A stretch of DNA of 64,000 nucleotides from Candidatus Spongiisociaceae bacterium (lineage in GTDB: Bacteria > Actinomycetota > Acidimicrobiia > Spongiisociales > Spongiisociaceae). Each line of letters begins with the position of its first letter. Position 1 is the stretch's first letter. The DNA lies in contig CBDCOH010000002.1 in NCBI GenBank assembly GCA_965219685.1, positions 4,224,001 through 4,288,000 of the forward strand, written 5' to 3'. The translations under genes and the position numbers were made by a program. The notes under the pieces were generated by a model. It saw only the letters and a program-made list of their open reading frames with translations. It was not told the DNA's origin and did not search any database. Positions 4,009 through 9,605 of the stretch are shown in pieces.

Positions 4009-6975
4009 TCAGCTCTTGGACCACCAGTTCACTCCTTCGGGAGTGCGCGGCCAGCAGTTGATGGTGTCGTCGGTTGCGATGGCGCAGGTGTGTCTCTTGT
4101 GGGCCGTTATGGCTCTGTAGGTGCCGGGGATCGAGTCGGGGTTGTCGCCATCCTTGCCTCCCCAGCAGTTGATGGCGCCGTCGGTGGCGATGGCGCAGGA
4201 GTGGATCCGGCCCAGCGCGAGGGCCTTGTAGGTGCCGGTGGGCGCGCTGGTCTGCCCGTGGTCGTTTTGTCCCCAGCAGGAGACGGTGTCGTCGGTTGCG
4301 ATGGCGCAGGAGTGGTGCCCGCCGGCTGCGAGCGTCTTGTAGGTGCCGGTGGGCGCTCTGGTCTGGCGATAGTTGTTTCGTCCCCAGCAGTTGATGGTGT
4401 CGTCGGTGGCGATGGCGCAGGTGTGGTACCGGCCCAGCGCGAGGGCCTTGTAGGTGCCGGTGGGCGCGTTGGTCTGGCCATGGTCGTTTTGTCCCCAGCA
4501 GTTGATGGTGTCGTCGGTGGCGATAGCGCAGGAGTGGTTTTGGCGAAGCGCGAGCGTGCTGAAGGTGCCGGTGGGCGCGTCGGTCTGCCCGGAGGTGTTG
4601 AGCCCCCAGCAGGTGATGGTGTCGTCGGCGGCGATGGCGCAGATGTGGTCGTCGCCTGATGACAGTGCCTTGTGCGTGCCTGCGGGTGTGCCGGTCTGCC
4701 CGAGGGAGTTGTCTCCCCAGCAGGCGATCGTGCCGTCGGTTGTCATGGCGCAGCTGTGAAAGAGGCCGGTTACGACGGTCTTGTGGGTGCCGGTGGGCGC
4801 GTCGGTCTGTCCGAGGTCGTTCAGTCCCTGGCAGGTGATCGTGTCGTCGGCCCCTATGGCGCAGCTGTGATACTCGCCGACAGCGACGGCCTTGTGGGTG
4901 CCGGCCTGCGGCTCCGCAAGCGCGTTGTAGTTCTCTCCCCAGCAGGTGACGGAGTCGTCGGTCGCGATGGCGCAAGTGTGGTAACCGCTGGCGAGGACAG
5001 TCTTGAAGGTGCCGGCCGGCGCGTCTGAATTGCCGTAGAGGTTGGATCCCCAGCACGCCAGAGTGTCGTCGAGTGCAATCGCACAAGTGTGGGTGATGCC
5101 GCTGCTGACCGTCCTGTAGGTGCCGGCTGGCGGGTCTGACTGGCCATTGCGGTTGTCTCCCCAGCACACCAGCGTGTCGTTGGTGGCGATGGCGCACGTA
5201 TGCTCGGACCCGGTCGAGAACCTCTTGTACGTCCCGGCCGGCTCGTCGGACTGCCGGTAGCGTTGGTACCCCCAGCAGTTGAGGGTGTCGTCGAGCGCGA
5301 GCGCACAAGTGTGGACTTCGCCGGCGTCGATTGCCTTGTAGGTGCCCCTCGGCGGTTCGTCCACTCCCTGGTTGCTGTATCCCCAGCAGGCGATCTTGCC
5401 GTTGGTCCTGAGGGCGCACACGTGCTCCCAGCCGATGGTCATGGCCTTGAACGTTCCTTCAGGCGCCTCGGCCTGACCGAAGGAGTTGTATCCCCAGCAG
5501 GCCATGGTGTCGTCGGTCTTGATGGCGCACGAGGTCCGGTCGTGCGCCTCAATATCCTTGTAGGTGCCGGCCGGCGCCTCGAGCTGGAGGAAGGCGTTGT
5601 CACCCCAGCAGGCGATGGTGTCGTCGGTCTTGATGGCGCACATATGCATGCTGCTGGTGACGAATGACTTGTAGGTGCCGTCCGGTACGCCGATCTGCCC
5701 ATGGCTGTTCACCCCCCAGCAGGAGATGGTGCCGTCATAGCGCAGGCCGCAGGTGTCGTGGGCGTTGGATGAGAGTGCCTTGAAGCCTTTGTTGTTGGTT
5801 GTTTGGTGGTGGCCGGGCATGTCGTGGCGGGCGAGGTGGGATTGGGTGTTGCTGGCGACCCACATGGAGGCTTCGTTGGACCAGATGCCCCAGGGTTTGT
5901 CGGTGCCGGTGTCGTCGAGGCTGTCGATGTCCTTGTCCGGCGTGCGGGCGCCGTTGGAGAGTCGGTAGGCGTAGATCTTGTCGTCGCGGTCGTCCGCCAC
6001 CCACAGGGTGGTTCCGTCGGACCAGATGCCCCTGGGGTTGTTGTTACCCGCCGCATCCAGGGTGTCGATGTCCTTGCCGGGTGTGCGGGTGCCGTTGTCG
6101 ATCCGGTAGGCGTAGATCTTGTCGTCCTCGTCGTCGGCGATCCAGAGGGTGGTTCCGTTCGACCAGATGCCCATGGGCTTGGTGTTGCCCGCCGCTTCGA
6201 GGGTGATGATCACCTTGGACGCGTCGCGGACGCCGTCGGCGAGGCTATAGGCGTATACCCAGTTGTCGCGGCCGTCGGCGACCCAGACGGTGGTTCCGTC
6301 GGACCACACGCCCCGGGGAGTGGTGTTACCGGCGGCGGCGAGGGTGTTGATGTCTTTGGACGTGTCCCGGGTGCCGTCGGCAAGGGTGTAGGCGTAGACC
6401 TTGTCCTCGGCGTTGTCGGCCACCCATACGGTGGTGCTGTCGGACCAGATCCCACGGCTGGCGGTGTTGTCCTCGTCTAACGATGCCGTCGTCCACTCCA
6501 CCGCCGAGACGACCTCCTCGGTCTCCTCGGTCTCCTGCGGGGGTGGAGCCGCCGGAGTGTTGGCGCGAACGAACCCCGACTGCGCGCTAAGGCCCTCAGC
6601 GTTGCGGGCCTTGACCCGGTAGACGTACCGGGCCGATGCCTCAACAGTCGTGTCGGTGTAACCGGTGGCGTCAGCAGCCACCGCGTCATCGATGACGTCG
6701 AACACGCCCGCAGCGTGCACGGCGCGGTTGCGGCGAAGAACCTGATATCCCGTGATGGACGAGTCCCCCGGATCGTTCCACGACAGCGTCACCGAGTCAT
6801 GGGCCACAGCACTAACGGCAAGCCCCTGCGGCGCATCGGGCTCATCCCCCGTCTGGGCCGCCGCGGTGGCGACCACCGCCGCTGAGATCCCCGCCACCAC
6901 TGCAACAACCCGAAGAAAAGTCATCGAGCACATGGTTTGGCTGGCCGCTCTAGGAACCCGACGCTGCTTGCCCAT
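4009..6975 (-). CDS. Secreted FN3 + beta-propeller + RCC1/BLIP-II-like repeat protein (paralog A)
   Basis: 988-aa ORF with the same architecture as 1061-3955, signal peptide ending ATAAA-Q, 16 repeats of about 37 aa. The start may be a few codons downstream. Confidence 0.88.
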   Translation of the reverse strand: MGKQRRVPRAASQTMCSMTFLRVVAVVAGISAAVVATAAAQTGDEPDAPQGLAVSAVAHDSVTLSWNDPGDSSITGYQVLRRNRAVHAAGVFDVIDDAVAADATGYTDTTVEASARYVYRVKARNAEGLSAQSGFVRANTPAAPPPQETEETEEVVSAVEWTTASLDEDNTASRGIWSDSTTVWVADNAEDKVYAYTLADGTRDTSKDINTLAAAGNTTPRGVWSDGTTVWVADGRDNWVYAYSLADGVRDASKVIITLEAAGNTKPMGIWSNGTTLWIADDEDDKIYAYRIDNGTRTPGKDIDTLDAAGNNNPRGIWSDGTTLWVADDRDDKIYAYRLSNGARTPDKDIDSLDDTGTDKPWGIWSNEASMWVASNTQSHLARHDMPGHHQTTNNKGFKALSSNAHDTCGLRYDGTISCWGVNSHGQIGVPDGTYKSFVTSSMHMCAIKTDDTIACWGDNAFLQLEAPAGTYKDIEAHDRTSCAIKTDDTMACWGYNSFGQAEAPEGTFKAMTIGWEHVCALRTNGKIACWGYSNQGVDEPPRGTYKAIDAGEVHTCALALDDTLNCWGYQRYRQSDEPAGTYKRFSTGSEHTCAIATNDTLVCWGDNRNGQSDPPAGTYRTVSSGITHTCAIALDDTLACWGSNLYGNSDAPAGTFKTVLASGYHTCAIATDDSVTCWGENYNALAEPQAGTHKAVAVGEYHSCAIGADDTITCQGLNDLGQTDAPTGTHKTVVTGLFHSCAMTTDGTIACWGDNSLGQTGTPAGTHKALSSGDDHICAIAADDTITCWGLNTSGQTDAPTGTFSTLALRQNHSCAIATDDTINCWGQNDHGQTNAPTGTYKALALGRYHTCAIATDDTINCWGRNNYRQTRAPTGTYKTLAAGGHHSCAIATDDTVSCWGQNDHGQTSAPTGTYKALALGRIHSCAIATDGAINCWGGKDGDNPDSIPGTYRAITAHKRHTCAIATDDTINCWPRTPEGVNWWSKS

Positions 6976-7556
6976 TATCCCGGACCTCTTGCCGTTCCCA
7001 TGGCCGGTCGACCTGCGCTAATTCTGGCTCCGGCGAACTCGCGGGCTGATCTCTGGACGCTGCAAGGCTGCCCTACCTGTGGGCCTTCCCTGGGCGTTTC
7101 TCCCCTGGGGACCTATTGACTTCATCCGTACCCGTACCGGCTTCGATCCGGATGGTAATCGAGATGCCGCTATCCCACAAGCGTAAGCATGAGATAGCCG
7201 TAAGATAGTTGGCTATCTATATCAAATTACTGTAAACTCAGGTGCAGCACGTGCGGGTCGGGGACTATCGCCGCCGCTTCCTTGTACGTGGGACTACACA
7301 GAGCCGCATGAGACCACATAAGCTCCACACAAGACCGAAGTCTATCCGCGGACACAGCATCTGATTGAGGCTCTAGGAGATCGCACAAAACCAGGAAACG
7401 GCGGTCGCCCCACCGCCGAACCTCGGAGCACCTGACCTCAGCAGTGGTCTTGGCAACGGACTCTGTGCCGGATGGTCCGCAAAGACTCGCGCAGTTGCCT
7501 ATGTCAAGAGGATCCCCACCCCCCCATGAACCGCCCCGGAACCGCCCCGGATGCTC

Positions 7557-8789
7557 CTATGTTTTGCAAATCGGTTTTGTGGTGGGGTCGGTGAGCCATT
7601 TCTGGTAGCGGGTGGCGAGCTGGTGGTTGTGGTGGAGGCCTCGTTCGAGGAGCGATAGGAGGGTGGGGTGGACCTGGAGGTGTTCGGCGGCGTCGGTGAG
7701 GGTTAATCGGGTTTGGTGGCGTTGGTGGCGGAGGTCGTTGCCGTCGGGTGTCGGGGACGGTTTGGTTAGGAGGTGGTAGATCTCGCGGGCGATGTGCCGT
7801 TTCAGGCAGCGGATGATCTCGCGGCGGGTTTTGCCTTCGGCTTTGCGTCTGCGGGTGTATTCGATGGTGCGGGGGTCGGTGCGCATCCGGTTGGTGGCGA
7901 TTCGCCAGAGAGCGTTGTTGGCTTGGCGGTCGCCGCCTCGGTTGAGCCGATGCCGAACTATCTGTCCCGATGATGCTTGGACGGGGCTGAGGGCGCATAG
8001 TGCCGCGAAGGACCGTTCCGATTTCATGCGTTGGGGGTTGTCGCCGGCGGCGACTAGGAGTGCTGCAGCGCTGTGGGGGCCCACTCCGGAGGCGGCTAGG
8101 AGCGCCGGGTTGGCCTTGGCGCAGAGACGGCGGATCTCGGTGTCGAGTTCGGCTATTTCTGTGTCGAGGGTCCGGTATCGGCGGGCCAGGTGCCGCAGCG
8201 CCCTCTTCGCGTACGCGGTGGTGGTCTGCGCTTCGCCGGGACGCCAGCGGACACAGATTCTGACCATCGCTCAGATACTGGAGCCCCGGAGCCGATGTTT
8301 GACCTGCTCAGGGGCGGTTGTGAGGAGGGCGTGGATCTGGTTGGCGGCCTGGGTGCGTGCTTTGACCGCTGAACGGCGAGCCATCCGAAGCATTCTTATC
8401 CCTTCTACGGGTCCGTCCCCGCCTTTGGGTCGCCCGGTGGCATCTCCGCTGAGGGCAGCTCGGGCTGCGGCCTCGGCGTCGACGGTGTCGGTCTTGCCCC
8501 TGAGACGACGCAGCTGGCGGTTGGGACGCATGACCTCCACCACCTCGATGCCCACTCGGGTCAGATAACGAGCCAGGCCGGCGCCGTAACTGCCGGTGCC
8601 CTCCACACCGACCTGAACAGGCCGCCCCCAGGAGCGAAGCCACTCCTCCAGCTGCGCGTATCCCGCCGCATCAGCCCTGAACTCCTCTGCTCCCAGTAGG
8701 CGACCCGTGTGATCCAGCACGGCCCCAACGTGGATATCCCGATGGGTATCAACCCCTCCAAACACATCGACCTGGCCTCTCTCCGGCAT
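7557..8789 (-). pseudogene. IS110 transposase/recombinase with in-frame TGA at 8273-8271 and C-terminal XRE-like HTH
   Basis: GVDTH...GVEGTGSYG...KTDxVDA RuvC-like domain; SPVQASSG...RHRLNRGGDRQAN domain. The two ORF-track halves are in the same frame, separated by one TGA. Confidence 0.85.
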
Positions 8790-8799
8790 GCGCTCTGCC

Positions 8800-9025
8800 T
8801 CCCCTCTCCTTGTTGGAATAGGCTTTGTGCGGCAGCGCCGGTCCGAAGCGGGTGGACAAAACACTCAGGGTGTGGGGAAGAAACGACCAAAGCTCCTATG
8901 AGGTCACATCCGCTCCGGGCTGGCTGCCCGTACCCCCCGACCGGTGCCCGGCCGACAGATCCGGGGTAAGGCACCACAGCCAGTTTCCCGGTGGGTCAGA
9001 CCGGACCCCGGTCGAGGTCCCTTAA
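8800..9025 (-). ncRNA. Candidate IS110 bridge RNA
   Basis: Structured non-coding leader (stems CTGGCTG/CAGCCAG, GGTGCC/GGCACC) carrying 8-9 nt segments matching both element ends and the flank. Confidence 0.6.
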
Positions 9026-9605
9026 GTATGAGTGTTTCCCCGGAGACTCATTTGAGCAAGTCTCACAACCTTCTGTGTCAACCCCTCGCGGGTTCGGACT
9101 TGAGGGACTTCTATTTGGAAGATGTTCTCCCTTCTTCGGTTTAGCCAAGCGGTGGAGGTACGCATCCGAGTGTGGGCACCTGTGCTGACAGGGCCGACAC
9201 GGACGTGTGGATGGCCGCCCCGGTAGTCTGGACCGATGGGCACTGGCTGGTCTCCTGCAGAGGGTTCTGCCCCTTCGTGGGTCGCTTGAGGACGGCCAAG
9301 CAGATCTGTCCGAAAGGACCCCCGACCACACATCGGTTCCGAGGCCAGAACCATCGAGGGCGGCTCCGGGTTCTACGACCCCGTGGACCTGCCCGACGAT
9401 GTGCGGCTGCGCGTGAATAGGGCAGCCCGGTGGTAGCACAGGGAACCCGGTGACGCGTAGTCTCCCTCAGTCTGATTCATCTCATAGGCGGCTGCCTACC
9501 GATAACTTCCTAACAGGGTCTGAGAACGCCATCTCGTGCGTGCTGTGGGATCAAAGGTGGGACGAATCCTACCAAAAAGCTGTTTACCTGGGCTTTACCC
9601 GGTCC

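Follow-up and report, generated by a model that had tools for sequence, protein, structure and literature searches.

The 64,000-nucleotide window analysed here, taken from a Candidatus Spongiisociaceae bacterium (GenBank assembly GCA_965219685.1, contig CBDCOH010000002.1, positions 4,224,001 to 4,288,000), carries on its minus strand an IS110-family element of 1484 bp (7550-9033, counting one of the two junction C residues at 9034 and 7550). It is very probable that this is an insertion sequence (IS) of the IS110 group with a left-end bridge RNA that reads both the ends of the element itself and the site of insertion, which is here the end of another IS. Bridge RNAs have been predicted for 85.7% of the catalogued IS110 elements, according to the survey by Durrant and co-workers (Durrant et al., 2024, PMC11208160). 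A first-pass annotation of the window had proposed that the leader of the recombinase gene encodes a molecule of this type, and the homologues uphold the proposal, since in them the guide segments covary with the flanking DNA and the stems covary as well. All features given below in window coordinates lie on the minus strand.

Boundaries of the element and its insertion site

The genome to which the window belongs (4.4 Mb in two contigs) contains 22 matches to the element in all, many of which are fragments. Besides the window copy there are three near-full copies at 95-98% identity, as well as 'b'-type relatives at ~70%, and the comparison of these same-genome copies and relatives supports an IS110-family element at 7550-9033. 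The boundaries were set by a paralogous empty site at C2:3159389-3159479, which is an IS3-family inverted repeat and reads ...GGAGAAAC|CGGGGCGGTTCA. The corresponding site occupied by the sister copy L003 (G000:C2:3020676-3022177) reads ...GGAGAAAC|ACTCATAC...GGAGCATC|CGGGGCGGTTCA, such that the 60 nt to the left of L003 are identical to the empty inverted repeat at 59 positions, the right flank extends the repeat by 12 nt, and a single C is the sole base common to the empty site and both junctions. From this comparison of empty and occupied sites it follows that the element spans 7550-9033 with one shared C, that its first base is 9033 (ACTCATAC...) and that the AAAC at 9037-9034 is target DNA. 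The first-pass annotation had let the left end begin at 9037, which is 4 nt too far out, so that only the part at 9033-9029 of the segment that it assigned to the element belongs to it. Another left boundary, at 9049-9050, where the BLAST alignments to the 70%-identical relatives begin, was dropped because the empty site and the register of the left target guide (described below) put 9049-9034 in the target. The left end is thus a long non-coding segment of 244 nt (9033-8790) and the right end is very short, reaching only 7 nt beyond the stop codon of the recombinase gene (TAG, 7559-7557), which itself lies within the right end; there are neither terminal inverted repeats nor a multi-base target duplication.

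The left target half (LT), GAGTCTCCGGGGAAAC at 9034-9049, is the inner part of a 28-bp site that resembles an inverted repeat of the IS3 type, and C 9034 is the only one of its bases that is common with the right junction. With one to two changes, these 16 nt stand directly before every a-type copy, and they belong to the left inverted repeat (IRL) of six resident IS3-family copies, one of which is the repeat occupied by L003; the resident 1.3-kb element with this repeat encodes rve and HTH_21 domains, as is typical of the IS3 family. The right target half (RT), CGGGGCGGTTC at 7549-7539 with a tandem second copy at 7538-7528, is the outer tip of the inverted-repeat-like site. Judged from these sequences, the element naturally inserts into a 28-bp sequence, the left inverted repeat of a resident IS3-family element, at 12 bp from the tip. 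Outside the 28-bp site nothing in the flanks of the window copy resembles the IS3 copy, and the repeat that it occupies is therefore a solitary one. After excision, this site would read ...GGGGAAAC-CGGGGCGGTTC....

The word TCCGGGG had been noted at both junctions in the first-pass annotation, and it does occur at 9045-9039 and at 7551-7545; the left occurrence, however, lies wholly within the target repeat and is not a feature of the junction. It was considered as a 7-bp duplication or as the core and dropped on both counts, since the left copy is part of the repeat and the copies L002 and L003 differ there. Nor did insertion create it as a duplication, because the target, itself an inverted repeat, repeats CCGGGG/CGGGG internally. 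The 11-bp tandem duplication described for the right flank stands, with CCGGGGCGGTTC present twice in tandem at 7550-7528. Such a tandem duplication of the outer tip of the target is seen at two independent solitary sites, with 11 bp in the window (7528-7549) and 15 bp at G000:C2:2939860-2939890.

The left-end RNA and the covariation of its guides

In the alignment of same-genome copies the leader has a constant scaffold made up of GGTCTGACCCA, AACTGGC...GTGCCTT and GATCTGTCG, with one variable segment between the first and second of these and another between the second and third. Relatives were collected as 64 loci in public genomes, chiefly those of sponge-associated Acidimicrobiia, Rubrobacteraceae, Streptomyces and Myxococcales, and, as the first-pass annotation had suggested, a covariance model was built, with a seed of 11 leaders. 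Run on 75 sources, the model gives 70 matches, which lie upstream of the recombinase gene, and it matches the window at 8839-9015 with 168.1 bits (E 5.2e-43). In the family structure a basal stem precedes two stem-loops, both of which contain a large internal loop. The first, the target-binding stem-loop (8943-9008), has a basal stem (9008-8995/8956-8943), the internal loop and a distal 3-bp hairpin (8981-8979/8972-8970), and the second, the donor-binding stem-loop (8846-8915), is closed by an outer stem (8915-8903/8857-8846). Standard pairs fill 93.4% of the cells, compared with 34-48% when the 3' partners are slid by one to three columns, counted in an alignment that was fitted to the model and therefore favours the structure, and changes on both sides are found in 20 of the 31 pairs. 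The RNA itself would likely be ~180 nt long, with its 5' end near 9019-9017, judged from the position ~7 nt past a -10-like hexamer.

Three segments of the leader had been reported to match the junctions, and all three are present: CCCCGGAT (8966-8959) is the reverse complement of ATCCGGGG (7552-7545), CATAGGAGC (8900-8892) is identical to the right end (7561-7553) and TGAGTGTTT (8867-8859) is the reverse complement of AAACACTCA (9037-9029). The order of a target loop followed by a donor loop, which was deduced from them, also holds, but one guide had been missed, namely the left target guide (LTG), CCGGGAAAC at 8991-8983. It has the sense of LT plus the C and matches CGGGGAAAC (9042-9034) at eight of nine positions. 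The right target guide (RTG), CCCCG at 8966-8962, pairs with the CGGGG of RT (7549-7545); 3' of it, G 8961 pairs with the junction C 7550, and two handshake-like pairs with the donor end follow, A 8960 with T 7551 and U 8959 with A 7552. In the second loop the left donor guide (LDG) is the segment at 8900-8892 that is identical to the right end. The right donor guide (RDG), UGAGU at 8867-8863, pairs with ACTCA (9033-9029) and is followed by G 8862, which pairs with C 9034, and by UUU (8861-8859), which pairs handshake-like with the target AAA (9037-9035). The first-pass annotation had named as a test of its proposal whether the matched segments lie in paired stems or fail to covary with ends and targets. 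In the family consensus structure LTG, RTG and RDG are unpaired, occupying internal-loop positions, and across homologues each target guide changes in step with its flank, so that the proposal withstood the test.

For RTG, both the guide and a recognisable right-end motif could be read in 41 of the 70 model matches, which reduce to 28 unique guide-flank pairs belonging to 16 classes. At least four of five Watson-Crick matches are found in 24 of these 28 pairs (10 of them perfect) versus 16 of 420 cross-class combinations, and the class-level sum of 67 of 80 compares with a mean of 25.2 and a maximum of 48 upon permutation, so that none of 20000 permutations reaches the observed value; the poorest case is L058, with none of five. 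For LTG, the upstream sequence was long enough in 62 of the 70 rows, which yield 60 unique pairs from 35 classes; 37 of these pairs (23 perfect) match the flank at eight or nine of nine positions, versus 31 of 1190 cross-class combinations, and the match stops at the left end of the element. The RDG also follows the left junction, with AAACACTCA facing UGAGUGUUU in the window and AACCACTCA facing UGAGUGGUU in L023; in L026 CATACTC stands with GAGUGUG (one G-T pair), and a change of RDG together with the junction is seen in the L029 class as well.

These data bear on the possibility that the matches are due to chance or composition, the leader being G+C-rich and the flank rich in CCGGGG, and that the leader is merely a 5' untranslated region with a promoter region. 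When the 231-nt leader was compared with two 40-nt junction windows for exact direct or reverse-complementary matches of at least 8 nt, three separate matches were found, and 29 of 2000 dinucleotide-preserving shuffles also gave at least three. Furthermore, words of the CCGGGG type recur in the region, and the minimum-energy fold of the leader is no more stable than those of shuffles (z -1.34 for the fold that pairs LTG with RTG). The matches within the single sequence are thus unusual but not decisive. The decisive evidence is the covariation among homologues: the guides change with the flanks over 16 RTG and 35 LTG classes in many genomes and the stems covary, which leaves this explanation with next to no probability.

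Several points weigh against the bridge RNA reading. The pair counts carry the bias of the fitted alignment mentioned above, and many homologues come from few genomes, for which reason the tests were made at the level of classes. A scan of 7300-9300 against Rfam 15, with E values up to 10, gave only chance-level hits to sX5 and Vax2os1_3 and no family match. Within the RNA, three of the nine LDG bases lie in a weakly supported predicted 3-bp helix, and the internal repeats of the target make the a-type LTG (CCGGG) and RTG (CCCGG) complementary to each other; minimum-energy folds of the single sequence pair them. The donor guides are nearly constant and therefore offer little covariation; they vary little because the ends of the element are conserved, with ATAGGAGC at the LDG invariant in the 11-sequence seed alignment and the element end ...TAGGAGC(A/G/T)TC present in 37 of the 64 loci. 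The LTG match is imperfect in the genome itself, with eight of nine positions in the window and only seven of nine in L003, and the LTG matches of L038, L076 and L077 are to an upstream tandem LTG-coding copy instead of the flank, so that without them the count is 34 of 57. In addition, the crossover lacks a core dinucleotide that donor and target have in common and that all four guides read, only a C being shared, and codon 173 (8273-8271) in the recombinase gene of the window copy is an in-frame TGA; both points are taken up below.

The tandem copies just mentioned are themselves of note. L038 carries at 168-560 seven tandem 51-bp units, each of which reaches from the first base of the element (ACTCATAA...) to the end of the LTG-coding segment, and L076 and L077 carry two such 51-bp units each. 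The DNA that encodes LTG is identical in sequence to the left target half, and the units accordingly look as if the donor had recombined again and again with the LTG-coding DNA of the element itself.

Crossover, core and a predicted circle

According to the mechanism that we propose for the bridge RNA, the first internal loop would read the insertion site, with LTG, which is in the sense of LT, pairing with the bottom strand, and the second loop would read the element's own ends, through the identity of LDG to the right end and the complementarity of RDG to the left one. On the 3' side each right-hand guide would be continued by a G for the junction C and by another two to three bases whose pairing is with the other partner, such that GA-U would read the donor A-TC and UUU the target AAA. 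For IS621, such handshake guides have been described to pair with the other partner after strand exchange (Hiraizumi et al., 2024, PMC11208158). Among the homologues GA is invariant after every RTG, and the base that follows GA complements the last donor base before TC in 23 of 23 unique combinations of guide and end (A:U in 12, G:C in 8, T:A in 2 and G:U in 1).

The donor end is (A/G/T)TC throughout, and where that of the window copy has A-TC the a-type target reads A-AC, with AC in place of TC; LTG and RDG read AC, and RTG reads TC. A dinucleotide core of TC, CC or AA was tried in each case and rejected, as none of them fits all classes, whereas a single C does. By contrast, a CT dinucleotide is conserved in both partners of IS621, as stated by Durrant et al. 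(2024). The missing dinucleotide lowers the probability that the present system is identical to IS621, not that it works like it. The sequences would be consistent with a core of a single base followed by two handshake positions, or with a TC core and a tolerated mismatch at the first position. In the former arrangement the base 5' of the shared C would be set separately for each partner, with LTG reading the target's own base (A here), and the invariant A after RTG would read the donor T only after strand exchange. On this reading, which as a whole is tentative and less probable than not, the actinobacterial clade would have a bridge system with a mononucleotide core and a three-base G-A-N extension, and its sub-clade with an additional C-terminal XRE-type helix-turn-helix (HTH) domain would be specialised to home into the inverted repeats of IS3, ISL3 and other IS110 elements. 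If a mononucleotide core is true, it would put fewer sequence constraints on the target than the CT core of IS621.

Excision of the element to a circle would join ...GGAGCATC directly to ACTCATAC..., and a putative promoter would be completed at this joint. The left end has the -10-like hexamer CATACT (9025-9030), which is conserved in relatives, and the right end has the -35-like hexamer TTGCAA (7564-7569), which is TTGACA in many relatives; their roles are suggested by their sequences. When 7550 is joined to 9033, TTGCAA comes to lie 17 nt upstream of CATACT (spacing counted by hand), so that the predicted circle-junction promoter would drive both the RNA and the recombinase gene. A promoter and terminator scan of 7400-9200 in the integrated state found none. 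Contigs from the four best sequencing runs of one sample over 7300-9300 contained no joint of an empty site or a circle, and since these are contigs only, the absence proves nothing; they run into the element from both flanks, and their loose ends match the flanks of other copies.

The recombinase and the relation to other homing elements

The recombinase gene (7557-8789) encodes a DEDD/RuvC-like domain, a Tnp domain and a C-terminal HTH. PF01548 (DEDD_Tnp_IS110) scores 83.3 bits against a cut-off of 29 on 8274-8789, and PF02371 (Transposase_20) scores 67.1 bits against a cut-off of 21.3 on the other half of the gene. A search of the PDB with the single intact protein gave no match. A profile made from three recombinases (one a-type, two b-type) and searched against the PDB sequences did match the IS621 recombinase (8wt6, E 3.6e-11), with the catalytic residues D, E, D, D and S aligned and the SG of ...QASSG... 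placed on the ESG of IS621. The serine is residue 243 of the chain, which was taken as the native S241 on the assumption of a 2-residue tag and with the list of catalytic residues from Hiraizumi et al. (PMC11208158).

Codon 173, where the window copy has the TGA, is CAA in the copies L003, L004 and L040, and TGA in L002. Because of this nonsense codon the window copy does not provide a usable recombinase and could move only with the enzyme of an intact sister copy. Such a copy exists in L003, which encodes an uninterrupted 410-aa recombinase. The stop codon, together with a genome that holds many IS110 fragments and nested remnants, suggests another possibility, namely that the window copy is a decayed, immobile relic in which neither the RNA nor the gene works and the RNA region has been kept only through the youth of the copy. 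However, the RNA region is nearly identical to that of L003, an intact recombinase with the same guides is present in the genome, and the same TGA allele is found at two different sites, the window and L002 (G000:C2:215881-217382), therefore having been moved or copied after the stop arose. The relic is thus a possible though less probable account, and a bridge RNA system of which the window copy is a member that would rely on a sister enzyme is preferred. The spread of the stop-bearing allele after the mutation, which follows from its presence at two sites, can be due to mobilisation in trans, to gene conversion or, less likely, to read-through.

In the sponge-associated sub-clade the recombinase ends in an XRE-type HTH at about residues 350-390, which in the protein P0001 corresponds to window positions 7560-7740. 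HTH_3 is above the cut-off in two of the three proteins tested, and in the a-type protein HTH_31 is found below the cut-off. Since this sub-clade both has the extra domain and inserts into the inverted repeats of other IS elements, the protein, for example through its C-terminal HTH, might recognise the site and the RNA-like complementarity might be secondary. Against this stands that differences in the site among close relatives are mirrored base for base in two segments of the loops, and that relatives apparently without the HTH, in which the protein matches stop around residue 340-350, with the right-end motif no more than tens of bases further on, covary likewise. We therefore regard recognition by the protein as quite improbable, and recognition by the bridge RNA remains the favoured reading.

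The likeness to IS621 extends from the DEDD and Tnp domains with their catalytic residues to the long left end and short right end and the handshake positions 3' of RTG and RDG, and the promoter predicted here across the circle junction would be a parallel to the split promoter of IS621 (Durrant et al., 2024; Hiraizumi et al., 2024). As in IS621 and IS110-group bridge RNAs, the left-end RNA has two stem-loops with internal loops, the target loop before the donor loop, and as in IS621 the loops follow the sense of the top strand on their 5' sides and are complementary to that strand on their 3' sides. Unlike IS621, the present system has a single C shared by donor and target instead of the conserved CT dinucleotide, and a recombinase of 410 instead of 326 aa with a C-terminal XRE-type HTH, a domain that IS621 lacks. 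The two also differ in that the similarity between the proteins is too low for a single-sequence match and in that the natural target here is the inverted repeat of another IS. IS621 itself targets repetitive extragenic palindromic (REP) sequences.

Homing of IS110-family elements to the inverted repeats of other mobile elements, at a fixed position and in a fixed orientation, is known from IS4321 and IS5075 of the IS1111 group, and the window element resembles them in this respect. In contrast to IS4321 and IS5075, whose group carries the guide RNA in the right end (PMC11208160), the RNA lies here in the left end and the hosts are IS3- and ISL3-family elements. Neither the long RNA-bearing right end nor the subterminal inverted repeats of 7-17 bp of the IS1111 group were found, the right end stopping 7 nt past the stop codon. 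ISPpu9 and ISPpu10 of Pseudomonas putida are similar in that IS110-family elements insert into one conserved, many-copy repeat; these are, however, proteobacterial and target extragenic palindromic repeats instead of IS ends. A full-text literature search found no paper on IS110-group elements that target IS3 or ISL3 inverted repeats, which is not proof of absence, and the tables of predicted bridge RNAs of Durrant et al. may already list relatives of the window element.

Homing is not confined to IS3 ends. The IS110 elements of the L029 class (L027-L033, L039, L041, L072; locus positions 1-470) all lie ~8-10 bp from the tip of an ISL3-family element; their upstream flank encodes PF01610 and is conserved over 150 to >450 nt, and the downstream flank diverges after ~8-10 nt. 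Other IS110s also serve as insertion targets. A region of ~85 kb at G000:C2:3047000-3132000 is dense with IS110 copies and fragments that are nested in each other; within it, an a-type copy is split at the equivalent of window position 8865/8866, inside RDG, by an IS110 whose LTG matches the site, and another element is inserted at TTTGACAA in a b-type right end. At G000:C2:3027690-3027750 a 31-nt stub of a b-type left end (GCGCGAAAAC to GGGTCCTC) is directly followed by TAAAC and the IS3 tip CGGGGCGGTTCA, and is a remnant that unites a left end of the b type with a right target half of the a type. Beside the element in the window, an open reading frame of 988 aa (4009-6975) has a signal-like N terminus and many ...HxCAIxxDDTxxCWGxNxxGQ... 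repeats, which resemble those of the RCC1 type.

The case illustrates that a bridge RNA can be found by reading raw sequence without tools. For the IS110 family, it provides a full map of the guides in a little-studied actinobacterial branch, comprising sponge-associated Acidimicrobiia and their relatives, and documents IS110 elements that home into the ends of the IS3 and ISL3 families. The practical points are modest, among them an orthologue that is intact in nature, whose guides and natural 28-bp target are known and which is at hand for tests. The clade also offers natural evidence on the handshake positions, which are complementary in all 23 combinations, and the data suggest that donor and target need share only one base, which would, if confirmed, loosen the constraints on the target.

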